A stretch of 61,944 bases of DNA from a virus (IMGVR_UViG_3300031555_010392:64001-125944), one strand, 5' to 3'; positions 2,229 through 39,362 are shown, numbered from the stretch's first letter. Made by a program: numbers and translations. Notes: a model not told the origin generated them from the letters alone.

Positions 2229-3332
2229 GGAGATATAGTAGCCTCAACTGACTGTGAGGCTATTATTAACAACGTATATAAAGATGAACTGACAGTAACC
2301 TATGATGCCCCTAAACCTTCTAAGAAGGTTTTTGATAAGCAGGATCTCTTTAATGCAGACCTTTTCTCCTTTGGCTCGATGATCGGCAGTATCACGAACA
2401 AGGGCACTAATGCTTATGCGCTGTTGCCATTACTTGAAGAGGAATATGGAAAGGATAGCAAAGAAGTCAAGCTTGTGCTTTCACGTCTGCAGCAGTGCTG
2501 TGTCGCACAGTCGAGAGCTATTGATAAAGCTAAGATAGGTCAGCCCGTTAAAGGTATTCCAGATATTTGGATCAGACGTCGCAGGATCACTGAGGAAGAT
2601 GATGAAGCAACTCGTGCTCACAAAGAACTTATGAATCGTTGCCTGATTGATAAGCGGCCTTATTTCTTCAAATATCGCTATGCCGACAGCAAACGCGAGC
2701 ATGATGCTTATAAGAAGAGCCGTGATGCTATTTGTAAATCGCTATTTGATCTTTCAATTGATGAGTTGATAGCCGCCCCTAGAAAAACTCAGGAGCAAAG
2801 AGATTGGCTGCGCAATTATCACGAATTTGCGCCACTCATTGAAAGCAACAGCCCCATGAACCTACTTTGCAAATATATCGAGCAGATTGATTTCCAGATT
2901 GTGAAAAAAATGAGGGCACCTGGGCAATTTGATCCGCATGTTTATATTGATCAGACTGTTGCTAATTGGGAAGAGCATTATGAAAGCATTGTAAAATGCT
3001 ATGATCGGCATTTACGAGATGTGGCTAATAATGCGGCTTGTGGTAATTTTGAAGAAGAAAGAATTATAGATAAATTGCGAGAGTCTATGTCTTTCATATG
3101 CACCAATCCAACTGTGGTGGTAAACTGTCTAGTGCAATATTTGCTTATTGATAAGCCGCGTAAAGATATAGAAATTTTGTGGCTGGCATATGGAAACCAA
3201 TTAGTTAGAAATGCAAGAAAGAACGATCAGGGGATAGTTGTTTTCCCTTTGCCTGACCCCAATGGCGAAATTGAATATTTGGGCGACAGGTTTCAAAATG
3301 TGGAGGTGACCGAGTATAAACTTGGCATTTAA
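2229..3332 (+). CDS. yonO: YonO-like RNA polymerase, exon 2
   Basis: Begins GDIVASTD, completing DFDGD; later SMIGSITN and IDKAK motifs typical of RdRP-like enzymes. Confidence 0.85.
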   Translation, partial: GDIVASTDCEAIINNVYKDELTVTYDAPKPSKKVFDKQDLFNADLFSFGSMIGSITNKGTNAYALLPLLEEEYGKDSKEVKLVLSRLQQCCVAQSRAIDKAKIGQPVKGIPDIWIRRRRITEEDDEATRAHKELMNRCLIDKRPYFFKYRYADSKREHDAYKKSRDAICKSLFDLSIDELIAAPRKTQEQRDWLRNYHEFAPLIESNSPMNLLCKYIEQIDFQIVKKMRAPGQFDPHVYIDQTVANWEEHYESIVKCYDRHLRDVANNAACGNFEEERIIDKLRESMSFICTNPTVVVNCLVQYLLIDKPRKDIEILWLAYGNQLVRNARKNDQGIVVFPLPDPNGEIEYLGDRFQNVEVTEYKLGI

Positions 3333-6134: not shown

Positions 6135-6189
6135 ATCGCAATAGCGTTTTATTGGTTGGCACATGAGGTCAATCTGAGTGATGAAACAA

Positions 6190-6470
6190 TATCCTGTTCC
6201 AGTATGTAGAGTATTGTGGAGCTCTCCGGGGGTTGTATGGGAACCACTAACTGGATAGGCTTTAAGCTGAAAGAAAACATATGGGCTGGTCGAAAGACCC
6301 TGGTCCACCGAGCGGCGGGGAATTTCCTTGCCATTTTTGTGCAACCGCGTGCAAACGCGTAACTCCTGGTTAATGAGTAGCGTTTAGGCGTTGCTCTGAT
6401 TTGAGGATTACCAAAGAGCCTTGTGCTCTTTGTTTTGCTTATATGGGTAGGCAAAGCTAAGAGCACAATG
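6190..6470 (+). ncRNA. Candidate structured non-coding RNA
   Basis: A run of hairpins with stable tetraloops (c-UCCG-g 6225-6228, GAAA 6292-6295, GCAA 6351-6354). Stems TCCAGT/ACTGGA and TTGTGCTCTT/AAGAGCACAA. No credible plus-strand ORF. Confidence 0.55.
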
Positions 6471-23296: not shown

Positions 23297-26200
23297 ATGA
23301 ACATGCCAGATGAATTAAGTGTAAAAATAGATGTTCTATTAGGCGTAAAGGAAGGCGAAGTAAAAAATATCAAGGCTCAGCTGGAAGACGAAAAAATAAA
23401 TGTCCCAGTTAATCTTGACGTGAAAGGGACAGATAAGGTAGATAAAAAACTTTCTCAGCTTCAGCAGCGTGCGCAAAAATATGCTGGTGAAATTCGAAAG
23501 ATTATAGCCAGTGTGCCTGAAATAGATAAGACTTTTAGAGGTTATACATTTTCTTCAGGAAAACTTAGGGATGCAAAATCTGAAATTCGTGGGCGCTTAG
23601 CTTTAGCAGAAAAAGAACTGACACCATATCTAAGACAATTAGAATCGCCCGATTTAACAGTTGATCAGCTTAAAGAAGCGCAAAAAGCCTCAAAGAAGGT
23701 TTTGGCAGATATATACCGCGCTCAAATGATGAGCGAAATGGCATCAGTCGGCAAAATGTTGACTCAAGGGGATAAGGCAGTTTCAAATGCTATTCTTCCT
23801 GATGAAGAAAGAAAGAAGCTTAAGAAAAATCTTTCCTTGTTGCGCAAAGACTACAATAAATTTTTTGATACCATCGATGAGAAGGCAAAGAAAATTGCGG
23901 TTGGCAAAGAGGATTTTTATGCTTTAAGAACAAGTGAGTTTGCTTCCATTGGCAAAATGGAGCGTGTACTTGAAAAAATTCCGCAGGAAATCGCTATTGC
24001 TGCAAATATTACCCCTGCTGTTGATCAAAAGGCAATTCAAACAGAAATTAATTCCGCGGTTGAAAACATAAAAATAACTAAGCCAGTTAAAGTGCCTATC
24101 GAGTTGATTGTTAAAGAGGATGTTAGCAGTGCCGATGATTCATCGGCGATTTCTAGTGTTGTTTCTTATAATGAAAAGAATTTTGGGAGCGCACTTAAGG
24201 CTGATGAGAAACTTCGTAATTTGTATGGAAAATTCCAGGATGATTATGAAGATCTTGTGCAACAGTTCCTCATGGGCGAGGAAGATGAAGAATATCGGCA
24301 AAAAGCTCAAAGTCTAATACAGGATGTAATTAACAATCGCAAAATGGAGCCTGGTAAGCTTCTGCAGGCGATTAGGGATAAATATAATAAAGACGGCAGC
24401 GAGTTTAATATTGGCAAGCGTGAAATTGGAAAAATACTTACTTTTGCTAATCATTTAGAGAATAAATTCGCCCCGGCTCTTGAAAAAACAATTGCGAAAA
24501 TTGAAACCGACCTATCTTCCAGAGTGCAGAAGTCAGCAATTGCTTTACAGCACACTATAGATCCTGAGAATCTCCTAAAAGCCTCAAAAACAAATGGCCT
24601 TATTGCCCCTAGTGGTGCCGTTTTTAATACGTCTCACGTGCCACAATTATATGGAAATGTTGGCCTATTTTTTGATGGCGCGACATTTGATCCTAGACTT
24701 CATCAAGATTCGCATTTGTTTGGAGCTGACGGCAATACACCGGTTGTAGGAAATTTAAAAACCAGAAAAATCAGGAAACAAGACGGGACTATTGAAACTC
24801 AATTATATAGTGAGTTAGAAAAAGCATGGTTGCCTTTTACTGCTGAAAATGCAGCGAATATCATGCGCAATGAATACCCGCTGGTCAATCTGCCCGGTCA
24901 TTTCGGGAAAAGTTTTGACGCTCCAGAAGATTTTGAAGAAGTCGGCGAGTCTCTGAAACAAGCATTTATAAAAAGGTATGCCAACTTTGATGAGCTGTTG
25001 GCAGATTCAGATCGTTTATTGGATGCTGTAAAAACCAATGGCGGTATAAAAGATGCTGGAAATATTGATGCGGATCAGCATAAGGCATACGCACAAAAAT
25101 ATAGAGAAATTCAAACTGATATTTTGAATGCTATGGGGAAAGATGCCATTGATAGCGTTGACCCACAAATTTTTAAGGCTGTTACAGATGCTATTGTTAG
25201 TGACACATCCCCGATGCTGGCAAATGAGAATGAATTTGTATCCTCTTTGCAAAAAAGCTTTGATGAAACGGGTATTCAACTAAATAACGAGATAATTCAG
25301 AAGTTGGTAAGCCTTAGAAACAGCATGGCGAACAATTTGGCCGATTATTTTGAAGCAAAAATTATGCGCGATGTCGGCATTGAAGAAGCTCGCGCAGCTG
25401 TTGTGCCGCGGAATGTTGATCCTGCGGTTCGCCAAGAACTTACAAAAAGAAATATCCCTATTTATGAATATGAATATACCGAACTCCCTAAAGCAAAAGA
25501 TTTTCAGGGAGATCAAAAAGCTTATAAAGAAGCCTTTGTTAGAATTAATGAGGCGAATGAAAGAGCTTATCTTGAAGCTGTTAACAGGGTAATTGCCGAT
25601 CATCCTGAGCTTAATTTAAGAAATTACAAGACAAAGTTGCCGCCAATTGCTGCGGATAGTAGCAAGAAAGAAGCTGAATTCCGTAAACAGGCAAATGACT
25701 TGATGGCTCGTTTTACACGTGCATCTTCTGAAGAGATTGTTCCTAAAGTAGACCCTTCTGAGATTGAGAATGCTGGCGCTGAGGCGAAACAACTCTCAAA
25801 TACTTTGGCAAATCTCGAGGGTGAAAGCACACATGTGCATGTTAATGCTGATGAGGTTAAAACAGCAACTAAAGAAGCGGAAAGGTTGCTTGCGCTTCCC
25901 GCGCCGCAATATGAGGAGCTATCTCCTTATCAAAAGCCTAGCGCAGAAGCGCTTCGCAATGTTGATGCTATTTATGATTGGACAACTTACGAGCGAGCGC
26001 TTGAACCGATTTGGAATAAAATGCGCGATGGGTTATCTCATCCTCAGTTTATCCCAATTGGCGGAAGGACCCTTCAGGATTTAGTTGATAATTATCGTAC
26101 TGGGCTACAGGGTGCCAATTTGTTGCCCGATGCGAGCGGCAGTATTGGCAGGTTTCCTGGGGTGGGTACTTCATCTGCTTCTATACCTGTTGATATAAAT

Positions 26201-28333
26201 GTGGATCCTGATATTCACGTAAATAATCCCGTAGAAGTAAAAGAAGAAGTCAAGAAGGTCGTAGAAAATGCAACCAAATCTAGTGGCTCCACAAAAGCAG
26301 AAGCAGATGTTGAAATAGAAACAAATGTTGAGATTGCCGATCCGCATGGCATGATGAATGACATCAAAGCAGAAATTGAAAAGAATAAAAAACTGGTTGA
26401 TGACATTAGCGAAATGCCTAGGTCGATAATGAGCAAACAACAGGCAGATAATCGTGTCAGTCAGTTGCAGCAAAATATAAAGCATCTTGAACATTTGCAA
26501 AATGTGCTGCAGCAAACGGGAAACATGCTGCCCGATAATTATGAGTCTATTTTTGCTCAGAGCAGGAAGCTTCAAGAGAAAGCTTTTAAAAATATCCATT
26601 TAGAAACCTTTGAGCAGCAGGGCGATAAGCTTAAAAATATGTTCTCTGAAATTACTCAGGCAATGGGCTCGTTACACGGCGATAAAGATTTCTCTAATCT
26701 GTTTGATGCCGCCTCTAATTCTTTGCAGGTTTACAGCGACCAGTATGCTAAAGTCCTTGAGCTTTCCAAGCAAGGCAACTTAACCGGTGAAGATATTGCT
26801 TCTTTAAATAAGGCATATGTTCAGGCTGCACACGATGTTGAGGCTTATGCGAAAGCGGTCAAAGACGCCTCGAAAGCTGAAGAAAAGCAAACCAACGCTG
26901 CTAAGAAAAATCAAGCGGCAATGGAGACTGCAAAAACAAAAATCCAAGAAATGCTTGAACTTCAGAAAAAATATGAAAAAGCATTCAAGGATCCTGCTTG
27001 GGCGCAGTCTTATAATAACATTTTAGCTGGCTATCAGGCCATTGGCCCCGATACAGAAAACGCCGCGGATAGGGTCGCAAGTCTTAACAAGCAACTTGCG
27101 GCATTAAAAGCCCAAGCTCGTGCGGCTGGCACCGCAACAACTACTTTTGGGACTTCACTTGAGAAAGCCTTTAGCCGTTTTGGCCGGTGGTTTAGCGCAT
27201 CTGAGATTTTCATGTTTATTGTCAATAAAACGAAAGAAATGATTGGCAATGTAAAAGCTATCGATTCTGCAATGACAGATCTCCGTAAGGTTACTGATGC
27301 GAGTGAAGGACAGTACGACAAATACTTAACTAGCGCAGCACAGCGTAGTGCTGATATGAGTGCAAGAATTACCGGCTATATTGGTGGGACAAATCAATTT
27401 GCGCGTCTTGGTTATGGTATTGAGGATGCACAAAAACTTGGTGAAGTCGCAACGATTTATGCCCAAGTTGGCGACGATATTCAAGGAATTGAGGATGCCT
27501 CTAGTAGTATTATTGCTACAATGAAGGCGTTTGATATTGAAGCAGACAACGCTATGTCCATTGTTGACAAATTTAACAGAGCTGGTAATGCTTACGCAGT
27601 TTCCAGCGGCAACATTGGCGCAATGCTTCAACGCTCTGCGGCCGCTATGGCATCTGCAGGAAACGATATTAATCAGACAATTGCCATGGGCACTGCTATG
27701 GCAGAAGTCAACCGCGACGCTGAAAAATCTGGCGCCGCGTTAAAAGTGCTTGCTCTTCGTCTAAGAGGTTCTAAAACTGAGCTTGAAGAGATGGGTGAGA
27801 GCACGGAAACCATGGCCACTTCAACTAGCAAACTTCGTGAGCAGATCCTAGCTCTTACGAACGTTGATGGTACTGGTGGCTTTGATATTATGGATGCAGA
27901 TGGTTTTAAGTCCACTTATGAAATGATCGATGGTATTGCCAACGCATTTAATAAGATGGATGATGGTAGCGAAAATGCCGCGGCTTTGTTGGAGCTTATT
28001 GCTGGTAAGAACCGTGCTTCTGATGTTGCCGGTATGATGAAAAACTGGGAAACGGCTAAAAATGTGTATAAAGATATGCTTAATGCCGAAGGCAGCGCAA
28101 TGGAAGAGTACGAAAAGTGGCAGAAATCCATTGAAGCTAAGTCTGAAAAGCTCGGTTCCAACTTTGAGCGTATGTCAGTTGCTGTTTTTGACACAGAAGT
28201 TCTCAGTGCATTCTATAATATTCTAAATAGCATTCTCTCTGTTTTCAGTGGAATTGCTGAAGTTGCGGGTGGCATTCCGACTATTGTTGGACTTGCTTTT
28301 GCTGCTTTGGCAAAAATTAAACCTGATTCTGGT
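23297..28333 (+). CDS. Tape measure protein, exon 1
   Basis: TP901-type TMP core at ~27250-28150 (IDSAMTDLRKVT...IVDKFN...LALRLRG); ends ...KPDSG at the group I 5' splice site. Confidence 0.88.
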
Positions 28334-28766
28334 ATTGTAAAAGTACAATATGCCCCGCTTATGAAGAACTCATTGGCGGCGTAAACTCGTATATGCTGGG
28401 AAAAAGATGATGAGATAGATCAGCTACAACATGGCCCGAAAGGGCGAGTGTGAATGCAGGTGGGGAAACCCTTCACGGGAGTGGGAAAGAAAATGGTCTA
28501 TTAAGTATATGGCGCGAGCCTACGTACAGGTGCTTCCATAATAAATAGCACACGTCTTTGGTCAGCAGGGGAATGATGAAAGTTGGAGCCTGATCAGCTC
28601 CGGCGATTGGATCAGCATTACCCTCACAGACTGCAAGGAGTTGGGGCGATAGAGATTCGCCTTTGATGGACAGTCGGACTGGTGGAGTGAAAATGGATAG
28701 CTCCACGCGTGAGTTTAAAGACTACACGCTGGCTAACGCTGGTGGCTGCGAAAGTGCCATAAGCTA

Positions 28767-28795
28767 TTGAAAAAAAGAAATAATAGGAGTACAAT
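28767..28795 (+). promoter_or_regulatory. Sigma-A promoter for the plus-strand cargo operon
   Basis: TTGAAA-N17-TACAAT, followed by RBS AAGGAGGTG. Confidence 0.75.
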
Positions 28796-28816
28796 GATTT
28801 AAAAGGAGGTGAGCTC

Positions 28817-29062
28817 ATGGCTTCTAAGCAACAGGAGGAAGACTTTCAGTGGTTTTTGAAAAATTATGCTTCATTGTCAGAGAAATATGCCCCCGCATAT
28901 TTGATTATCAAAAACGGCTCTGTACTTGGAGCTGAAGTGACTCCTGGTGACGCACTAAATAAAGCGCTTATTACAGAAGAAATGGGTAGTTTTATTATTC
29001 AAGAGTGTGATGGGACTGTTGAAGCATATACTAGTTATATTTCTTCTACATGTTTTTTATAA
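28817..29062 (+). CDS. DUF5678-like small protein (intron cargo)
   Basis: FQWFLKNYASLSEKY..YLIIKNGSVLG pattern. Confidence 0.6.
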   Translation: MASKQQEEDFQWFLKNYASLSEKYAPAYLIIKNGSVLGAEVTPGDALNKALITEEMGSFIIQECDGTVEAYTSYISSTCFL

Positions 29063-29094
29063 GATAAATTATACAAAAGACGGGATGAAACGCA

Positions 29095-29583
29095 ATGCTT
29101 TCTTCGCCAATTAGAGCATTTACTTCAACTTATCCTTCATTGAGCAAAAAGTTGATCAATGAAGCTGTGGTTGGTTACAATAAACAAGAGCTAACAGTGC
29201 GAGCTCAATGGGACACCGGTGCTACAACAACTTGTATTTCTAAAGATGTTGTTTCTCACTTAAATCTTATCCCTATTGGTTCTAGACAAATATCTACACC
29301 ATCTGGGAGCTCGGTTGTAAATACTTATATACTTGATATTAAATTGCTCAACAATGTGACGATTCCGCAATTAATCGTATGTGAAACGGAAATTGGGGAT
29401 CAAGGCATTGGGCTACTTGTTGGCATGGATATTATTGGGTTAGGTGATTTTGCTGTTAGCAATTGGGGCGGAAAAACAATTTTTACATTTAGAACCCCCT
29501 CTCAAAGAATAACCGATTATGCAAAACAACTATCCGTGCAAAATGTGATAGGCTCTCTTCATGGAAAGAAACATAGAAAATAA
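29095..29583 (+). CDS. Retropepsin-like aspartyl protease (intron cargo)
   Basis: WDTGATTTCIS catalytic DTG and C-terminal LLVGMDII motif. Confidence 0.85.
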   Translation: MLSSPIRAFTSTYPSLSKKLINEAVVGYNKQELTVRAQWDTGATTTCISKDVVSHLNLIPIGSRQISTPSGSSVVNTYILDIKLLNNVTIPQLIVCETEIGDQGIGLLVGMDIIGLGDFAVSNWGGKTIFTFRTPSQRITDYAKQLSVQNVIGSLHGKKHRK

Positions 29584-29607
29584 AAGAATATTTTGATTGT
29601 TTGTTGG

Positions 29608-29868
29608 CTATTCTCTCCCCAGAATTTCTATGATTTGTGGTCTAAAACCATCCACAAAACTTTGGGCGTCTTCACAGCAAAACACCAAAAACAACATTAA
29701 GGTCAATGCGCAACATCCATGTTCACCTTTTTCAATGGCAGCATAGGATCTGGGGTCAATCAACAAGATCTCAGCAAATTGTGCTTGAGTCATTTGATTA
29801 TCAAAACGCACTTTGGATAAACGTTCTATCAAATAAGTTTGAAGAGCGCATTTACACGCAGTTTTCAT
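29608..29868 (-). CDS. XRE-family HTH protein (intron cargo)
   Basis: MTQAQFAEILLIDPRSYAAIEKG; RBS AAGGAG. Confidence 0.8.
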   Translation of the reverse strand: MKTACKCALQTYLIERLSKVRFDNQMTQAQFAEILLIDPRSYAAIEKGEHGCCALTLMLFLVFCCEDAQSFVDGFRPQIIEILGRE

Positions 29869-29993
29869 TGGCTATTATCTCCTTTTTAGTGATGTGGAAG
29901 ATAATTTTAATGAAAAATGGTAGATGCTGCCATGAGGTATACATCATGAATTTTAAAGAAAAAAAGAAAAGACCGTTAATTTCGGTCTGTAGA

Positions 29994-30022
29994 TTGACTA
30001 TTGAATGAGGATATGATAGCAT
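29994..30022 (+). promoter_or_regulatory. Sigma-A promoter for a small RNA
   Basis: TTGACT-N17-TAGCAT with an extended -10 TG; no ORF downstream before the terminator. Confidence 0.65.
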
Positions 30023-30027
30023 AAGTA

Positions 30028-30138
30028 CGAAGTGAGGACTTCACTGTGCGTAAAGCACCCCATAACAGCTAATTATCAAATCTAATTAGCTAATCAAAAG
30101 TATCGTGCAAGCTGTCAACTGCACGGTACTTTTTGATT
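30028..30138 (+). ncRNA. Candidate antitoxin sRNA (~110 nt)
   Basis: Lies between the promoter and a terminator; hairpins GAAGT/ACTTC, GTGC/GCAC and AGCTAATTA/TAATTAGCT; convergent with a small hydrophobic ORF. Confidence 0.55.
30092..30138. terminator. Bidirectional terminator
   Basis: AATCAAAAGTATCGTGCA/TGCACGGTACTTTTTGATT, with an A-tract and a T-tract on the two sides. Confidence 0.75.
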
Positions 30139-30230
30139 TAGCCTGCGAAATGAGCGTACATTTGGAAGACTAAACGTAGAAAGTTGATGATAGTGATAAT
30201 AATATCACAGATAGAATTAGTCTTTCTCAT
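30138..30230 (-). CDS. Candidate type I toxin, 30 aa hydrophobic peptide MRKTNSICDIIITIINFLRLVFQMYAHFAG (not in the ORF track)
   Basis: RBS GAAAGGGGGTG, ATG 30230, TAA 30140-30138 abutting the terminator. Confidence 0.65.
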   Translation of the reverse strand: MRKTNSICDIIITIINFLRLVFQMYAHFAG

Positions 30231-30373
30231 CACAACACCCCCTTTCAGTATTACCTGTTAGGGATGTTGCCGCACAGTGCTTCGTGCTTATGCCATTATT
30301 TACTATACTACTGAGGGAATTATAGTGCAGAAGAACGGGTGTTCTTACTATTTATGTTTGTGTTTTGCAGCGC

Positions 30374-30868
30374 CTATTTCTTTATTGATAGTTGATGCTC
30401 AAACAGCTCATGGAACATAAGCTGCAATTGAATGTCTTCAAATTTGATTAGAAAGACATCGTTTGTTACATCAACAATTTTACCAGCACCAAGCTTTTTA
30501 TGAAGGATAGTAGCCCCAATAAAATTATTGTAAATAGAATTGGTGCGCACAGAAGCAGGGGTTCGCGTTTTCTTGGATTTGGTTGCTATGCGATTTTTCT
30601 TTTTCTCCTCTTGTTGGTGTAACCATGCCTCATTGGCCTTTCTGATTTTTTCCTGATCATATTCGATTTTGCGTCGCATGATCATAAGATTTCTTTGATC
30701 TTCTGTGTAGTATTTGCAATATGTAGAGGAAGAACAGGGCCCGTATTTGAAGAGGCAGTTTTTAGTTTCTTTATTATAGTAGGCGCAGCGTAATTTTGAT
30801 CTATTCTTATCGATCTTTTTTACGTATTCTATGTGCCAAGGAGTCCCCTGAAGTTGAGAAATGCTCAT
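30374..30868 (-). CDS. Cys4 domain + coiled coil + C-terminal Tudor/SH3-like domain (intron cargo)
   Basis: CAYY..C....C....C; C-terminal GATILHKKLGAGKIVDV. Confidence 0.6.
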   Translation of the reverse strand: MSISQLQGTPWHIEYVKKIDKNRSKLRCAYYNKETKNCLFKYGPCSSSTYCKYYTEDQRNLMIMRRKIEYDQEKIRKANEAWLHQQEEKKKNRIATKSKKTRTPASVRTNSIYNNFIGATILHKKLGAGKIVDVTNDVFLIKFEDIQLQLMFHELFEHQLSIKK

Positions 30869-30877
30869 AAGTATACC

Positions 30878-31330
30878 TCACCACATATGCCCACATTTCT
30901 TGCATCTTTTGGTTTTGCCAATCTTATTGCTTGCAAGCCCCCAGGCAGCTACAGAGAATGCACGACGGATTGTGGAGATTTCTTCGATGATCTGAGGTGG
31001 AGCTCCGCATTGGGGACAACATTTTGCTCGGAAAGCAGCTTGACGAGCGAGTGTTTCTCTATGAGAACGGGCATATTTTTGGGCCTCATCCATAATTTGC
31101 GTTACTTCTTTTTCACGCGCAGTAACAGACATCATTGATAATTCAGTCAGCGTATGGACTTCCCATCCCCAATGCTTTGGTGTAACGACATCAACTTTCC
31201 CGCCGCAATTTTTGTGTGTGGCTCTCATATTATCAAAAAGTTGCAGAGCGCTTTCTTCAATGTCAAGTGCTGGAGCCACAGCTCCGCACGTTTCACAATA
31301 CCAAAAATAATCATCATCCCATTTTGACAT
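30878..31330 (-). CDS. Zinc-ribbon protein (intron cargo)
   Basis: CETC/HKNC and CPQC...CKKC pairs flanking a short hydrophobic AFSVAAWGLAS segment; RBS AAGGAGG. Confidence 0.7.
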   Translation of the reverse strand: MSKWDDDYFWYCETCGAVAPALDIEESALQLFDNMRATHKNCGGKVDVVTPKHWGWEVHTLTELSMMSVTAREKEVTQIMDEAQKYARSHRETLARQAAFRAKCCPQCGAPPQIIEEISTIRRAFSVAAWGLASNKIGKTKRCKKCGHMW

Positions 31331-31355
31331 TTTTAAATACCTCCTTATATTTATT

Positions 31356-31384
31356 AGTATACCTATGCCTATTTATAGTGTCAA
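31356..31384 (-). promoter_or_regulatory. Near-consensus sigma-A promoter for the minus-strand cargo operon
   Basis: TTGACA-N17-TATACT on the minus strand, ~30 nt from the 3' splice site. Confidence 0.85.
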
Positions 31385-31413
31385 CATTGATCATGTAGAC
31401 ATTTAGCCACAAG

Positions 31414-34400
31414 TTGATTTTACCTTGGCAACAAATAATTGGTGCAGATGGTAATGCGTTTTTAGGTTCCATTTTTACTGCAAATAGAGACAGAAAAGCT
31501 GTTGCTTTGGAAGTACAAAAAAGAGATTTCGCATTTCTTGAGGAATATAATTCTGCCTCAAAATCACGTCGTGATGAAATCGAAAAATTAATTTCTCCTC
31601 AGACTGCGGGTTTTGTTAATTTTGATCTTTTGAAAGACAAAGCTGACGACGCAGATGAGCACATCAAAAGCGTTAAGAAAACATTAGAAGGAATCAACAA
31701 GATTGAATTCCAAGGCTGGGGCAAGAAAGCGGTTAACGCTCTCAAATCAGTCGGCCAAGCCTTTGTTGGTATTGCGGCTCAGGCTCTTACTGCTATGGCT
31801 GTTACTCTGGCTATTGAAGGCATTGTCACAGTTTTCGATAACATCATCAATGCTTCTCAGAAGGCCATTGACGCCGCAGACGAGACTAAAGCTGCGTGGG
31901 AGTCCTTAGACGCAACCCAGAAAACCGCCAGAGAGACAATTGACCAATATGGCGAACGTTATGATGAATTGTCTGAGAAAAGGGGTAAACCTTCTGGGTT
32001 GAGCACTTCCGAGTACGAAGAATATAAAGATATTTGCAACGAACTTGCTTCCGTATTTCCAGAGTTGGTAAGTGGCTGGGATGAGCAGGGAAATGCCATT
32101 CTTAGGGCTAATACAAGTATTAAAAAGCTGGAAGAGTCGTATCAGTCTTTACTTCGTTTAAATCGTGAAGCAAAGAGTGAAGATTTTGCGGAAACAGTCA
32201 TGGAAGGCGCTTATGCAAGATTGTATTCTGCTGATAAAGGTAGTTATACGGATTACCTCGAAATGCGTCGTGCAGCCGAAGAGTTGGCTAGGATGCAAGG
32301 CAGAGGTGAAAACGCAGAGGCCTATGAATTTGTTGCTCCCGGTGTAATTGGCGATTATGGCCAATACTGGTTTGGTAAAGATGGAATACTAAGCAGCAGT
32401 AACAAATTTATTGAACAAATCAATGGATTTATTAGCAGTGGCGACTTGAGCGCCATTGGGAAAATCCCAGGAGACCTTGCTGCATATTTTGGAACAGTAA
32501 CCGCTGCCGCTGGAGCTGCTGAATATGCCGCTGATGAGATCATTAAATTAAGTGACATTGATGCACTTGATTATATTACCGATCATACCGGAGCGCTAAA
32601 GCAAGGCACATCATTAGACGATGGTTTAAATCAGTTAGCTAATGCTGTGATTGGACAGATCATGTCTATAGAGCTTATAGTTGCTCAAAAAGCAGAGTCT
32701 TTGAGCTATCAGGCGGATCGTGATCTTGTCACTTTACAGGATGAATACCGTAATATGACTATTAACGCGTTTGATCGGTATTCAAACTATAAATATGGTG
32801 GCGGCATACTGGCCGAATCTGGATTTGAAGAAGATTTTAAAAATTATCTTGAAAGAGTGCCGTATGCTTTTGGACATGACTGGTTTGGTGAAATAGACGC
32901 CAAAGATCCGGCAGCTTTTGCTGATAAGTACAAAAATGAAGTACTGAACAAATTAAGAATTCCTACTGTTTCTGAAATGGTTGAGGGAATGTACCAATCT
33001 GTTACGGATTATTTCTCTGGAGATATGTCATATGGCGATCTTAAGAGAAAGTTGGATGGATACGGTAAAGATGGGCCATTCCAAAACGACCGTGTTTGGT
33101 CTGCATTTATTGAAGCCGCGTTTGGTGGTGAAGGTGTTCAGCAAGCGCAAGAAGATGCTTTTAAGCGAGCAAAAAACATCTTAAAATTTGGAGATGCTTC
33201 CTCGCTTGAGGATTTGACATTTGAACAATTGTCATTTCTTGCAGGATATAAAGGGGAAAGTATTTATTCACTTGACGAATTGAATGCTCTTATGAAAGAG
33301 GATGCAATAAAAAATCAAAGTGAATTAGAAGAAATTATTAAGTCCTACACCGACTTTAACGAGGCTCGCACCAAATCACTGTCCGCTCTTTCAGCCCTTA
33401 GCGAGCAAGGCCACCTTACTCCTGACGAATGGAAACAGCTTCAGGCGTCTGGCTATGATGCTGCAATTGCTGAAACACAGTATGGCTCCAAGTATGTCGA
33501 TTATCAGACGATGCGTGATATCGACGAAGCTAAAACTCAGGAAAAGATTGTAGAAAATCTTGAGGCGAAAGCTTTAAAGCAGGAAAAGCTTAATGAGCTA
33601 ACTGATGAGCACACCAAGCTCCTTGCTGAAAATTCCAAGGAAGCCGAGAAAAAGGCAGAAGAAATCAAAACTCTTGAAAATGAGATTGATTTGATTGATC
33701 TTATGAATGAGAGTCTTTTGGAGTCTACTTCTGCTCTTAATGCGTTTAAGCAGGCCTCCAGTATGGCCGAGCTTGGTGACAACTTCCGCTCTACCAAAGA
33801 AGCTCTTGATGCTATTAATGAGGGTCTTGAGTCTGGCCGTGTGGGCACCAACAAATTCAAAGCTGCGCTTGAACTGCTTGGTGGCAGAGGGATGCTTGAA
33901 CGGTTTGAATCCGGCGATTTCTCTCGTAAAGAGCTGAAGCAATACACTGAGCAACTTGGCAAATATTATGACGAAGATGGCAACATCAATCGTAGTAAGG
34001 CATTTGATACTTTTGTAAAAGAAGGTATAGGGCGCTATTTCAAAGGTGAAAACGGAGAAAAGCGTTTTGCATTTAATGCTGGGACTACGATGGCTCAGAT
34101 CCAAGAAAAGCTTGGCGGCATTACGGAAGAGATGGCTACATACTTCCTTGATGCTATTAATGAGTATGCTGTTGGTGCAAATGAAATCCTTGGGCCTGAT
34201 GGTTATGAGAGTTATCAGGAAAGAGCGAAAAAAGCCAGAGAAGAAGCTGAGGCAAAAGAGAGTGCAAGAATTGAACAGCTTAATGGAATTGCAGAAAATG
34301 CTTTAACGGCCTCTACTGAACAAATTGCGGCAGCTACTGAAACAAAGGCAGCGGCTACACTTATGAAAGAAGCTGCGGCTGCATGGCTGGCGTCTGCGCC

Positions 34401-37400
34401 CAAGGAAACTGAACCGTCTGCTACACCTATTGATTCTCAAATTGAATTAGAAAAAACAGCGATAGATAATCTCTTTAAAGAGCATATTGGAGCAACGCCT
34501 GTTCCAACTGAAGATACAGTTCAAGTGAATGGGGACATGTATGTGCAACCGCACGATTCAAGTGCCCCAATAGCGAAGCCATTCTTTAAAGACCCATTAG
34601 TGGGATTGGAAGGTACAGACAACTATCAGATTGAAGCACAGGCCATTGAGGCTGCTAGTGATATTTTAAAGGCGGCACTTCCTCAGCATTCTGATTTAGG
34701 CAGAGAGCCTGTTTCTCTCTCGGACGAAGTTTATAGCGAGAATAGAGCTGATGCTAATGCCCAAATTGATGCCAATGTATCTTATATCAAAGGCTTGTTC
34801 CAGGCTTTTGAAAGTGCAGGCGTGGATATGGCTCAAATTGATTTGGGGGCTTTGCAATCAAATGTCCAGAGTGTTGTAGATACACTTAAAGTGCTTGGGT
34901 ACAGTGGCGAAGCGCTTGACCAAGCAGACGCAATACTGCAAGGAATCAATACCAAATTGTTGGCATTGAAAGCGGCCGAAGCGGACTTGCCTTCTACGCC
35001 TCCTGTTCCGTCTGAAGTATCCTCAGTGATACCCAATAGAATTCCTGAAAAACTGCCAGAGAACGCTAGTGTATTTGAAAGCCTTGTGGGCGGTTTGACG
35101 GCTGTTACTCAGGAGACGAAGCAAGCATTAATCGATCATGCTATTCATCTAAAGGAAGCTTACGTTACCTTAGAAGATTACGAGAATTCTCAAATGGTAG
35201 AAAACGCCATTCAGAAAATCATGGATCTTCAAGTTGAGGGAATTACTCCTTATGTGCGTCCCGAACCTTCAGAGGTGCCGGAGGATGCAAAAGCGAGGAT
35301 ACCTGATAGCATCCCTGATATGCTCCCTGAAAGCGCGAGTGCATTTGAAAGTCTCGTGAGAGGGCTTACTGTCGTTACTGCGGAAGTGCAAGCAAGGCTT
35401 CTTGATCATGCTAACAGCTTGAAGGAAGCCTACACCAACATGCTCTCGATAACAGGAGATTATGAGGGTTTGGCTTTAATTGAGAATGCTCTCAGCCAAA
35501 TCGAGAGTCTTGAAATTGTAACTGATGCTCCTGTAGAAGTGGCTCCTGGTGCAGAAAATGCAGTTCCGTCTGCAACAATGAGCATTCATGAACAATTAAT
35601 GGCGCTGGGTGCTATGGGGCATGGTGCATTAGCATTTGCTGGATATAACGATGTAAACGCGATTAGAACTGAAAGAACAAAATCTTCAGAGACCACCCCT
35701 GCCGGGGAAGAGCAAGAGATTGAAAGTGAATTACATCTTGACAATGAAGCTGCTCTTGATGCGATTGATGAAGTAAAGGAGATAGCGGAAGAACCCTTAG
35801 AGGGTACTTTTGAGGTTGATCCTACATCTGCTGAGACTGCGGTAACGAATGTAGTTACAATGATTGAAACGATAACAACCAAGCCCGTTGATGCAAACAC
35901 AGAGCCTGCAGAGGGCAAGGTTGGAACGTTGGATTCTCGCATTCGCGCAACTGTTACCAAAGGTGTTGATACCAGTCAAATTGAAGGCGCTATCTCTTTA
36001 GCCGATGCGCTTCACAGCTCTCTTTCAAGGCCTGCTACAAAACGTGTTACAGTAGTTCAAAGTGGCGGATTAACGTCAGGTGGTTCAGTAACCGCTGTTG
36101 ATGGCGGTAAAATGGCCTCTTCTGGTGGGATCGCACGAGTTGATGGAGGGGCGGCATATGCTGGTGGTACAGCCCTTGTTGGCGAAATTGCTCCTGAAAT
36201 TATTGTTGACCGTAAGAGTGGTACATGGAGACTTGTTGATTATCCACAGCTTACCCATTTGAATCCTGGGGATATTGTTTTCAATGGTGAGCAAACTAAG
36301 GATATACTTGCTGGTAAGCGCACTGGTTTTAGTAAAGCTTTTGTAGATGGCAATGTTAAGGGTGGTTTGAGTTTTGCGAGTGGAGAAAAGCGGTACTTAA
36401 CAGCCGCTATGGGAGAATTTCAGGCTGGGAGTTTCGGCCTTAGCACTCCTTATAAAAGCCAAGCCATACCGGATGGTAAGAAAAAAAGCTCCGGCGGTGG
36501 TGGATCTTCTCGTGGAGGCTCCGGCGACGATGAAGAAAAAGACTGGAAAGACTGGATTGTCCGAGTTCTTGAAATTGCAAAAGAAGCTACAGAGAAAGCT
36601 ATTGACGATGTGGCTAAGAAAATTGGCTACCTCGCACAGAATGCTCAGTTGGATGTAGCTCTTAAAGCAAATCAGAACGAGATTGAAAAGAATGAGGCTG
36701 CTCAAAAGCGCTATATGGAACAGGCTGCGCAAATGCAAAGAGAGCATGGTTTAAGCGCTGACATTGTAAAAAGGATTCAAGAAGGCACGATTGATATTAC
36801 TAAGTATGATCAAGAAATGCTTGACAAGATTGATGATTATCAAACATGGTTTGAGAAAGCGGAAGATTGTCGAAAAGCTGTGGAAGAGCTGAAGGAGCAA
36901 GAGCTTGAGCTTCAGCGCCAAAAACTTGATAATATCGACAAATATTACAACCACAAGATTGACCGTCTTGAAGCCCAAATCAGTAAAAATGACTCCATGC
37001 TTGATCGGAAGGGCGCTTACGGCGAAGAGATTTTTCAACAAGATTATGTTGATGCCATTAAAGCAACCCAAGACAAGATTGCTCAACTGCAGGCTGAACG
37101 GAAGGCTTATGCAAAGCAGTTTGATGTACTTGTGAAGTCTGGGGCTCTTCAGCCTGATAGCAATGAGTGGCATGAGTACATATCTACTCTTGAAGAAGTG
37201 GATGAATCCATTATAGAAACGCAAACAGACCTCGCAGAGTTAAAAGATGCCATGGAGAACATAAAGCTTACTAATTTGCAGTATGCTCTTGATCGTCTTG
37301 AAGCTTTGCAGGATGCTTTAGAGAGTTTCTTGGATTTCCATGATTCTCAAGGCGTTGATAATAATGCTGATACCTATATTGATCTGATTCAGAATGCTTT

Positions 37401-37716
37401 CGACGAGATTGATAACCTTGAAATGCAAAATGAATTCCTCCGTGGGCAGCAAGAAGGACTGGATGTCCTGAGCGAGAAATGGCAGGAATTGCAGCAAGAG
37501 ATTGAAAGCAATGAACAGAGCATTTGGGAGATTAAGTCTGCGCAGGAGGATTGGAATGATACAATCGCTGACTTGCAGATTCAGATGCTTGAACGTGAAC
37601 GTGAAGAGCTTGAAAAGACCAATGACGCGCTGGAAAGACGCAAAGAAATGGAAGATGCTCTTGAAGACCTTGAAAAGGCTAAGAGCCAGAGAACGAAACT
37701 CATATACAGAGAGGGT
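31414..37716 (+). CDS. Tape measure protein, exon 2
   Basis: Long helical/coiled-coil ORF with no RBS at its start; ends ...IYREG at a group I 5' splice site. Confidence 0.85.
35010..35530 (+). repeat. Tandem ~270 nt (90 aa) duplication inside the TMP
   Basis: IPNRIPEKLPENASVFESLVGGLTAVT (from 35029) versus IPDSIPDMLPESASAFESLVRGLTVVT (from 35299). Confidence 0.8.
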
Positions 37717-38951
37717 AAACACCGATGCCCCTTTACGCAGTAATGTGTATTGCAACAGGTGAGTATATCGGTTAAAGCCTGAAGGAGACAGGTAAGACCG
37801 AGGTAAATATTGTTTATTGGCAAAATAGTAAGGAGTTATTTTGCCGCCATATAATCGGGTACCAGAGAAAGAAACAATAAAACTATGTAATAGTATAAAC
37901 TTGGAATATATTAATACGATTTATGAAAAGGTCGCGTATGTTGAATTTATATGTAAAAAGCATGACTACAAAGGGGTGCAAAGAATAAACCGCGAAGCTC
38001 TTTGTAGATGGGCTCAGAAAGGCACCTGTAATTGCGCACATATTAACAGAGACGCAGAAGATTTGCGTCGTGAACCAAATTTGGATAAAGATGTTATTGT
38101 ATTGGGTGAATATATAAAATCCAATATCCCCATTTTGTGCAAATGTAAAAGATGTCAAAGTGAATTCATGGCGACACCAAATAAACTTCAGCAAGGTCGC
38201 GGGTGCCCCAATTGTCGTTTTGAAAAAATAGGTGAACATAATCGCCTTGGTTTAGAAACCTATAAGCAACGCTTACAAAAGAATTTCCCTGACTTAGAAT
38301 TAGTCGGTGAGTATTCAGGGATGGAACATTCAATAACGTTTCGCTGTAAACGGTGCGGTAAAGTTCAGAAATGCTCTTCTGCATGGAGGGTGCTGTCTGG
38401 TGATCGCGGGTGTTCTAAATGCAATTCATCTAAAGGTGAAAGAAAAATTGCTAATTATTTGGATGCGCACAATATTTTTTATGAAGCACAAAAGCAATTT
38501 TTACAGTGTCACGCTAAGAAGCCTTTGCGATTTGATTTTTATATTCCCAGTTTGAATACCTGCATTGAATACCAAGGAGAACAACACTATAGACCAGTTG
38601 ATTTTGCTGGTAGGCATGATGGGAGCCATATAGTTAATCATTCATCTTTGCTGGAAAGAGATGATATTAAACGCTCTTTTTGCTCGCAAAATGCAATTAA
38701 TTTGGTCGAAATTCCATATTGGGAAATAGGAAACATCGAAGAAAAACTAAAAGATTTATTATGCTAATAAACAATATAACCGTAGAGACTGTAATGGTGG
38801 TTACAGCAATGTGACCACCTGACTCACCCTCCTCGAAAGAGGATGAAGATCCAGTCCGAACTCGCGCTATATCTCCAAAATAATAAAACGCGAGAGATGG
38901 GTTGAAAGACCTATCCGCCACACAAGTGGTTTATAAGTAACAGATTTATTG
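37717..38951 (+). mobile_element. Group I intron with endonuclease ORF in the TMP 3' region
   Basis: 5' exon ends GGT with P1 GCCC. R element CGTAGAGACTG and S element AAGATCCAGTCC. P10 CCGAT/ATCGG, terminal G at 38951. Splicing gives YREG|IGFVYEAD. Confidence 0.93.
37841..38767 (+). CDS. Intron-encoded homing endonuclease: Zn-ribbon repeats + Vsr/DUF559-like nuclease
   Basis: Repeated CxxC...GRGCPxC units; SKGERKI...FDFYI...IEYQGEQHY. Confidence 0.85.
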   Translation: MPPYNRVPEKETIKLCNSINLEYINTIYEKVAYVEFICKKHDYKGVQRINREALCRWAQKGTCNCAHINRDAEDLRREPNLDKDVIVLGEYIKSNIPILCKCKRCQSEFMATPNKLQQGRGCPNCRFEKIGEHNRLGLETYKQRLQKNFPDLELVGEYSGMEHSITFRCKRCGKVQKCSSAWRVLSGDRGCSKCNSSKGERKIANYLDAHNIFYEAQKQFLQCHAKKPLRFDFYIPSLNTCIEYQGEQHYRPVDFAGRHDGSHIVNHSSLLERDDIKRSFCSQNAINLVEIPYWEIGNIEEKLKDLLC

Positions 38952-39362
38952 ATCGGATTTGTATATGAGGCAGATCAAGAAGCTATCAAAGAAGCCCAAG
39001 ATCGCGTTGATGAACTCAGGCATAATGAAATGCTTGACAAAATTGACGAGGCTATTTCGGCTATCGAGGATAACAAGAAGAACGACAACATTTATGATTT
39101 CCAAGGTTCCAGCGTAATTAAGGACATCACAGATGAAGATGCTTTGAAGCTCTATAATTTGATTCATGGCTCTACGGATCTTGATGCCTTGCTTGCAGAT
39201 AAAGCATTTGCAGATTTGAAAAACGTTGGTGGAAACACCGCGTCTTCAACAGTCATTCAAATTGGCGATATCCGCCTTGAAGGCGTGCAAGACGCTAACT
39301 CGCTTGCGCAAAGCATAGTCAGTGAATTGCCAAATCGGCTTATCCAGGCAATTTATAAATAA
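38952..39362 (+). CDS. Tape measure protein, exon 3
   Basis: In-frame continuation IGFVYEADQEAIKEAQ... to the stop. Confidence 0.88.
   Translation: MGFVYEADQEAIKEAQDRVDELRHNEMLDKIDEAISAIEDNKKNDNIYDFQGSSVIKDITDEDALKLYNLIHGSTDLDALLADKAFADLKNVGGNTASSTVIQIGDIRLEGVQDANSLAQSIVSELPNRLIQAIYK

Follow-up and report, generated by a model that had tools for sequence, protein, structure and literature searches.

The tape-measure protein (TMP) gene of an SPbeta-like prophage is probably a single gene, split at positions 28334-31416 by a self-splicing group I intron that carries a cargo of other genes behind its ribozyme. The gene lies in a 61,944-nucleotide stretch of viral DNA (IMGVR_UViG_3300031555_010392:64001-125944; hereafter the window), which forms part of a 125,944-bp IMG/VR record classed in that database as a provirus at ~70% completeness. 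An earlier note on the window had proposed a group I intron in this gene, and the proposal is borne out by homology to introns that Rfam scores as group I, by covariation of helices P3, P7 and P8, and by a fold z-score of -3.2 for the core against shuffled sequences. Comparison with related phages further points to an antisense zinc-ribbon gene as a constant feature of the elements that split TMP genes in this way, and this is the main new result of the analysis. Coordinates are those of the window, and features lie on the + strand unless stated otherwise.

The interrupted tape-measure gene

The upstream open reading frame, ORF1 (23297-28384, 1695 aa), stops 17 codons beyond ...KPDSG, and near its C-terminus it contains, by sequence match, a TMP core of the PhageMin_Tail or TP901/SPbeta type that matches TMPs from Brevibacillus, Enterocloster, Bacillus and other phages. 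The predicted exon 1 covers 1679 codons of this frame (23297-28333) and closes with ...AKIKPDSG, its final GGU abutting the splice site. The downstream frame, ORF2 (31414-37743, 2109 aa), has been open since 31399 and reads LILPWQQ at 31414; its earliest possible start is the TTG at 31414, an in-frame ATG is absent over ~125 codons, and a purine-rich Shine-Dalgarno sequence looked for upstream of that start was not seen. ORF2 resembles the middle part of SPbeta-type TMPs such as YomI, and exon 2 is placed at 31417-37716 from this homology and from colinearity with the TMP of a Clostridia metagenome-assembled genome (L011). Because codon phase is 0 both at 28333 and at 31414, ORF1 and ORF2 join in frame. 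The translations thus agree with the earlier observation that the TMP frame stops soon after ...KPDSG and resumes at 31414 without a ribosome-binding site. At the predicted splice, exon 1 ends ...CCUGAUUCUGGU and exon 2 begins (UUG)AUUUUACCUUGG.

Related phages, which the earlier note had suggested for comparison, supplied both uninterrupted TMPs and homologous introns at the same site with different cargo. In L011 a single uninterrupted TMP of 3418 aa is colinear with the end of ORF1 and with ORF2 at ~40% identity, and three other relatives at ~40% identity also encode uninterrupted TMPs (L004 and L006, 3395 aa; L005, 2007 aa). The TMP is interrupted at the window's site in L003 and L012, and at other sites in L007, L013, L009 and L010. 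On the evidence of the uninterrupted, colinear relatives, which settle the point, we take ORF1 and ORF2 to be two halves of one TMP gene. Contigs from at least seven JGI samples repeat 29422-33445 at 99.95% identity or higher, and this near-identical recurrence across samples shows that the locus is not an assembly artefact.

This set was not enlarged by a blastn comparison of the region with the phage collection, which gave no match, or by locus searches with the first 300 aa of ORF2 and with P0011, which gave no related loci. One candidate relative, L002, was excluded because its downstream ORF, which is unrelated to TMP, marks it as a possible chimera. The TMP core of L009 / L010 (7755-11185) is broken into three or more pieces that occupy three frames, and a 506-aa DUF4379 (treble-clef) ORF lies between pieces, an arrangement that suggests several introns inside 3.5 kb.

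Ribozyme core and predicted splice sites

The intron would measure 3083 nt with G31416 as its terminal nucleotide, or 3080 nt with G31413, and its identity as group I is argued by helices that co-vary at fixed offsets. This holds for P3, P7 and P8 in four introns of the same lineage, those of the window, L012, L036 and L037. In the geometry of P3, five nucleotides that lie 5 nt 5' of the UGC of P4 complement five nucleotides placed 4 nt 3' of the P7 5' strand, and the two strands read AACUC and GAGUU in the window, GAGGA and UCCUC in L012, AGAGG and CCUCU in L036, and AAACC and GGUUU in L037. P7 pairs GACUG with CAGUC in the window and in L037, and GACUA with UAGUC in L012 and L036; the intron of L041 supplies a third type, GACUC with GAGUC. 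P8 forms a hairpin in all four, and the hairpin sequences are unrelated. This covariation amounts to an argument for group I identity that is independent of the family retrieved by motif, described below.

The ribozyme core, with helices P1 to P9.2, is assigned to 28331-28764 and so to the first ~430 nt of the intron. Following P1, the P2 hairpin (28355-28379; CCGCU-UAUG / CUCAU-UGGCGG) was read off the sequence and agrees with the fold. The P3 5' strand (28384-28388) forms a perfect 5-bp helix with 28638-28642. P4 pairs UGCUG at 28394-98 with CAGCA at 28563-67 and encloses P5 (28403-09 / 28553-59), whose extension of ~140 nt with GNRA loops fills the P4-P5 domain (28394-28567). Next comes P6 (GGGGAAUG / CAUUACCC; 28568-28623), with an extended loop, placed from both sequence and fold. 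The P7 5' strand, placed by covariation, lies at 28629-33, and P8 (28644-49 / 28657-62) is followed by J8/7 and the P7 3' strand at 28671-75. The fold then gives three P9-type hairpins (28682-87/28701-06, 28707-11/28725-29 and 28738-64) in the region 28682-28764. All four classical conserved elements can be recognised in the window: P UAUGCUGGGAAA, Q GUCAGCAGG, R CACAGACUG and S GGACAGUCGG.

Homology to other introns rests on the P4-P5 domain. The motifs ATGCTGGGAAA, CTACAACAT and GTGTGAATG are common to the window and to the intervening sequence of L012, and a pattern made from them led to 14 IMG/VR viral loci. When six of these motif loci were scanned with the Rfam group I model RF00028, four (L017, L018, L024, L025) scored 63-92 bits, exactly on the P4-P5 motif, and helices P5 and P5a co-vary in the alignment of the family. 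A covariance model built from 12 family members with the window excluded (R1) matches 28382-28570 (P3-P6) at 28 bits (E ~1e-3); this is the only match below E = 1 across 62 kb, the next best having E = 6.8. Homology to the window's ribozyme core is established for the lineage of L012, L036, L037 and L041. The group I cores of L003 and L038 differ in appearance from it, and the P0011 contig consists of gene calls only, with no DNA, so that its intron core falls outside the comparison. A second metagenome scan for the ATGCTGGGAAA subfamily gave one ordinary family member only (L028), and a search of viral contigs with a pattern of the window's own R and S elements gave nothing.

Three other kinds of element were considered and rejected: a group II intron (no domain V/VI matches), an intein (the intervening frame is not continuous) and an IStron (no tnpA or tnpB). 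Separately, one motif locus, L024, has four Rfam-scored group I introns (63-82 bits) within ~1.2 kb of a single viral contig (2789-4020).

Exon 1 ends in GGU^ (a caret marks the splice point) in the window, L036, L037, L038, L003 and apparently L041, and in each a hairpin and then a guide sequence follow. The guide (A)UAUGCC is common to the window, L036 and L003, and related guides occur in L038 and L037. In the window, P1 (28331-28354) pairs the exonic GGU with G28352-C-C, that is, by a U28333.G28352 wobble plus two G-C pairs, around an inner hairpin (28334-39/28344-49). Since exon 1 ends alike in these introns (GGU^) and its last U forms a wobble pair with a guide that is conserved (UAUGCC), the predicted 5' splice site at U28333 is well supported, in agreement with its earlier placement. 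An unguided scan for P1 and P10 was not discriminating for the window; its top P1, with a 5' splice site at 28306 and a guide at 28375, was rejected because it is incompatible both with P2 and with the way exon 1 ends in the relatives (GGU^).

For the 3' splice site the earlier note had chosen G31413. That G is in frame (PDSG^LILPWQQ), as is G31416 three nucleotides downstream (PDSG^ILPWQQ), and we regard G31416 as the more likely terminal nucleotide because its UUG^A end is held in common with L036 and L038: the 3' ends read GAUUG^AUAUUCC in L036, GAUUUG^ACAUCAC in L038, and AAGUUG^AUUUUACC in the window at 31416. The predicted junction would be ...CCTGATTCTGGT^ATTTTACCTTGG for G31416, ...GGT^TTGATTTTACC for G31413 and ...GGT^ACATTTAGCC for G31398, and the predicted junction-spanning peptide is ...IKPDSG(L)ILPWQQIIGADGNAFLGSIFTANR. 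Textbook in-frame P10 helices are found in the relatives (8 bp in L037, 7 bp in L036, 5 bp in L012 and 4 bp in L038). The window's guide sequence, ..UACAAUAU[G]CC, gives a weak P10 for all three in-frame G residues (31398, 31413 and 31416); the P10 proposed earlier (GUAAAA/UUUUAC) does not lie at the position of the guide sequence and is weak evidence.

The 3' tail of the intron (31331-31416) can pair over a distance with the region of P9 and beyond. Its segment 31338-66 pairs with 28783-28811, and 31403-10 pairs with one of two P9-region segments, UGGCUAA (28730-36) or GUGGCU (28742-47), each of which is able to pair with the tail. The 7-bp helix 28730-36/31403-09 that the earlier note had described does exist and is present in the minimum-free-energy structure of the cofold; taken alone it is no better than in shuffled sequence, and it has a competitor in a 6-bp pairing (28742-47/31405-10). 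Taken whole, the pairing between the tail and the post-P9 region is significant, with a z-score of -4.0 in the window, where 0/300 shuffles were as strong, and of -2.7 in L012. Most of the tail pairing in the window comes from an imperfect inverted repeat formed by two cargo promoter/ribosome-binding-site modules (28783-28811 / 31338-66).

Cargo and proposed transcription of the window intron

The part of the intron that separates its ribozyme core from the predicted 3' splice site holds ~2.6 kb of cargo with five ORFs on both strands (81 and 162 aa on +; 86, 164 and 150 aa on -), as had been noted before. The 81-aa ORF (28817-29062) has no family match. The 162-aa ORF (29095-29583) encodes a putative retropepsin-like aspartyl protease (Pfam Asp_protease_2, 8e-7) that is 32% identical to a protease in the cargo of L038 and has a weak PADLOC PDC-M08B match. 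On the - strand, the 86-aa ORF (29608-29868) resembles XRE-type helix-turn-helix proteins (HTH_19, 3e-6, below the Pfam cutoff), and a similar helix-turn-helix gene occurs in the intron of the P0011 relative. The 164-aa ORF (30374-30868, -) has a Cys-rich N-terminus and a weakly PcrA/UvrD-tudor-like C-terminus; in L029 (JGI 3300024268), which has one mismatch against the window over 4 kb, this gene is called as a 103-aa ORF (2761-3072), and the mismatch is probably a nonsense variant. The zinc-ribbon gene (150 aa; 30878-31330, -) adjoins the 3' splice site and is conserved in relatives. At the locus where a toxin-like peptide had been noted, gene calling gives a 31-aa ORF (30138-30233, -).

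Searches of the five cargo ORFs with Pfam, PHROGs, PADLOC and NCBIfam gave no homing endonuclease of the LAGLIDADG, GIY-YIG, HNH, His-Cys or PD-(D/E)XK types and, beyond weak zinc-ribbon matches, no transposase domain and no tnpA or tnpB, as the earlier note had observed. Atlas and fold searches with the 150-aa and 164-aa proteins returned uncharacterised relatives only.

Three promoter-like sequences frame the cargo. A sigma-A-like promoter, TTGAAA-17-TACAAT (28767-28795; 10/12 positions), lies ahead of the sense cargo operon, and a strong one for the antisense cargo, TTGACA-17-TATACT (31356-31384, -; 11/12 positions), lies inside the 3' tail. Back to back with the latter, near the start of the tail, a site on the TMP strand (31324-31351; 11/12 positions) could give rise to a transcript of exon 2 only.

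We propose that RNA polymerase would read the whole 3.1 kb in late transcription, that the long-range pairing would return the short 3' tail to the core at the intron's 5' end, with everything between looped out of the P9 region, and that the intron would then excise itself, joining ...KPDSG to (L)ILPWQQ in a TMP of ~3,900 aa. The looped-out DNA would constitute a gene island, with the antisense zinc-ribbon gene as its fixed member under a strong promoter of its own; the remaining members would be variable accessory genes, likewise with their own promoters, which the prophage could express at times when its late operon is silent. Since splicing would remove them from the RNA, insertions in the loop would spare the essential gene, and the loop would therefore gather and exchange cargo. 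Splicing, its cis mode, the timing of cargo expression and the role of the cargo are what we infer here from sequence, which by itself is compatible with either cis or trans splicing.

Several observations weigh against this proposal. The window's P1 is short (3 bp), its P10 is a weak 2+2 bp with a mismatch, and its R element and J8/7 deviate from the consensus. RF00028 gives no match on the window at the gathering threshold or at E<10 and is as silent on L012 and L036-L038; a scan of L002-L009 and L036-L038 with Rfam under gathering and E-value thresholds likewise found no group I match. The covariance-model search suggested in the earlier note therefore fails on the window itself but succeeds on four of its six scanned motif homologues. 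Unlike the wider family, the window's sub-lineage lacks P7.1/P7.2, and the window also has a large P5 extension, features that may be why Rfam misses it. The R1 match is partly circular because the family was retrieved using the window's own motif. At 30104-30125 (within 30092-30240) there is a hairpin flanked on either side by T-runs, which, together with the T-rich run that follows it, could slow + strand transcription, and convergent antisense transcription could interfere with read-through. Finally, an intron-less allele (the end of exon 1, 0-18 nt, the start of exon 2) was sought in viral and metagenome contigs, and none was found.

The Rfam result, the weak P1 and P10, and the record's status as a provirus at ~70% completeness could also be read as signs that the ribozyme is a decayed relic, with ORF1 and ORF2 now separate proteins and ordinary accessory genes between them, or that the prophage is defective. 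All core helices are intact, however, and co-vary with those of the relatives; ORF2 lacks a ribosome-binding site and a usable start; the layout is kept in seven other lineages, several of which have a strong in-frame P10; and the sequence is nearly unchanged across many samples. We therefore consider decay unlikely.

Splicing could also proceed in trans. Here transcript 1 would end within the cargo, transcript 2 would start from the + strand site at 31324-31351 and bring the tail and exon 2, and the two would be joined through 28783-28811 / 31338-31366 and 28730-36 / 31403-09. Such a scheme is in keeping with the 11/12 promoter-like site just upstream of the tail, with the strength of the intermolecular pairing that joins the tail to the post-P9 region, and with the mid-intron hairpin plus T-run at 30104-30140. 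Yet the promoter-like site shares sequence with the region of the divergent antisense promoter and could be a chance match, a terminator scan called no + strand terminator across the intron, and short relatives (983-1138 nt) need no such mechanism; we judge it highly improbable.

The zinc-ribbon gene, variable passengers and known introns

Homologues of the zinc-ribbon gene lie antisense, just inside the 3' splice site, in L012, L003, L036, L037, L038, L041 and the P0011 contig, whose protein is 66% identical to that of the window. Counting the window, the gene is found in a TMP-splitting element in eight of the 11 family members with examined context; the setting in L039 is ambiguous, and L040 and L042 place it outside phage tail genes. 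An AlphaFold2 model of the 150-aa protein (predicted local distance difference test score, pLDDT, 80) has two zinc ribbons linked by a long helix, and a fold search of the PDB with this model gave no match and no nuclease-like fold. The cargo as first described was incomplete in that this gene beside the 3' splice site had been missed as a constant passenger.

The other passengers vary. The intervening sequences of L036 (983 nt) and L012 (1138 nt) carry the zinc-ribbon gene and no other cargo. Besides that gene, the P0011 contig has, from its gene calls, a helix-turn-helix gene and a 177-aa ORF with no protease operon; L037 (3000 nt) has ORFs of 52, 164 and 96 aa and a DUF2513 gene; L038 (2616 nt) has four small ORFs and an Asp protease; and L003 (~2 kb) has a DUF3990 gene (PADLOC PDC-M13B, 3e-24) and a 93-aa ORF. 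In L041 (7001-10873) the gene is accompanied by AbiQ/ToxN (3.5e-30) and by an NsnA-like GmrSD_N protein (1e-41). One TMP site thus appears to combine the same zinc-ribbon flank with differing passengers, recognised defence genes among them, which is what a reading of the intron as a landing pad predicts. The earlier note had proposed such a landing pad for accessory or defence genes; the varying cargo, AbiQ and the NsnA-like gene in L041 and the DUF3990/PDC-M13-like gene in L003 speak for it, and any defence function of the window's own cargo is putative.

The same comparison could be taken to mean that a mobile island in its own right, with the zinc-ribbon gene as its hallmark, targets the TMP site or the intron loop, and that the intron only tolerates it. 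In its favour, the same gene accompanies rather different cores in L003, L038 and the window/L012 lineage, and it stands beside a ToxN gene in a non-phage chromosome (L040). The window's island, however, yielded neither an integrase or transposase nor terminal repeats, and its sole inverted repeat is the pair of promoter/ribosome-binding-site modules; the idea also overlaps with the cargo-bearing intron that we favour and does not exclude it. As an account of its own we think it very unlikely.

In L040 (7001-8086) a gene of the zinc-ribbon family and a ToxN_toxin gene converge in what is otherwise an ordinary stretch of bacterial chromosome, so the zinc-ribbon/ToxN pairing seen inside the L041 intron exists outside TMP introns too.

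Returning to the cargo-bearing intron, one may speculate that its lineage is a heritable 'socket' in SPbeta-like TMP genes, with the core and the zinc-ribbon gene as fixed flanks between which defence and accessory genes are swapped by recombination. The zinc-ribbon protein would then be a new intron-associated factor that replaces a homing endonuclease and acts in maintenance or mobility, or in TMP-linked superinfection exclusion. This extension is tentative, and we hold it to be possible rather than probable.

The window's TMP gene appears to be interrupted a second time. A group I-like intron with R- and S-like elements in its sequence is predicted at 37717-38951, which would leave 38952-39362 as exon 3, and its ORF (37841-38767), in contrast to the cargo of the first intron, is of the ordinary homing-endonuclease kind, with a match to the PHROG for HNH / intron-encoded nucleases (3e-53). 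The 5' part of this intron resembles both an ORF-less ~255-nt intron in L013 (1285-1574) and an intron in L007 (1340-2551) whose ORF is DUF2726-like, each at a different TMP site. Elsewhere in the window, 6176-6329 holds a drum RNA (88.5 bits) followed directly by a DUF3800-XI RNA (62.5 bits), and these are the only gathering-level Rfam matches in the window.

The usual passenger of phage group I introns is a homing endonuclease. Within TMP genes, such introns are known in prophages of the B. cereus group (PMC2504315) and in Vibrio phage ICP1, in which splicing was demonstrated by RNA-seq and RT-PCR and the introns are described as having one homing endonuclease gene, or two in one isolate (PMC10448857). 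The window's intron is like these (PMC2504315, PMC10448857) in that it interrupts a long TMP gene, has its ORFs outside the catalytic core and is one of several introns in one TMP. Unlike the ICP1 introns as described there, it has no recognisable endonuclease; its place is taken by a set of five or six unrelated genes, encoded on the two strands and independently promoted, together with the conserved antisense zinc-ribbon gene.

Peripheral loops filled with many unrelated, independently functional genes have a parallel in the giant ND5-717 group I intron of coral and corallimorph mitochondria, which holds host housekeeping genes in P8 (PMC6545197); that intron is mitochondrial and uses P8, whereas the window's is from a phage, with variable and partly antisense accessory cargo in the P9 region. 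The nearest bacterial analogue is the IStron, a group I intron fused to an IS200/IS605 element (PMC10690162), which likewise has a 5' group I core and a 3' non-endonuclease cargo and whose insertion is harmless through splicing. The window's intron differs from IStrons in having no tnpA, tnpB or omega-RNA, and its cargo is variable and not a transposon. Prophage morons and defence hotspots also have self-promoted accessory or defence genes (as AbiQ and the NsnA-like gene in L041) at a fixed variable locus; unlike theirs, the site in the window lies inside an essential structural coding sequence, where it would be tolerated only as intron RNA.

In the literature searched, including a 2014 review, none of the phage group I introns described has a cargo that is multi-gene, partly antisense and free of an endonuclease, although the coverage of that literature is incomplete and novelty is not proven. 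Within that literature, introns in TMP genes are known, and the endonuclease-free multi-gene cargo and the recurrent zinc-ribbon gene appear to be new.

If the predicted splicing is true, it has consequences for annotation, because TMPs of this kind are broken up into two or three gene calls and defence finders would not expect systems in a tail gene. The conserved antisense zinc-ribbon gene would then stand as a concrete candidate for a function new among intron-associated genes. A ribozyme would, moreover, make the interior of a long, essential structural gene a safe place in which to keep and exchange accessory and defence genes. Phage genomes would in that case have a variable hotspot of a new kind, and group I introns a role beyond the carriage of homing endonucleases.

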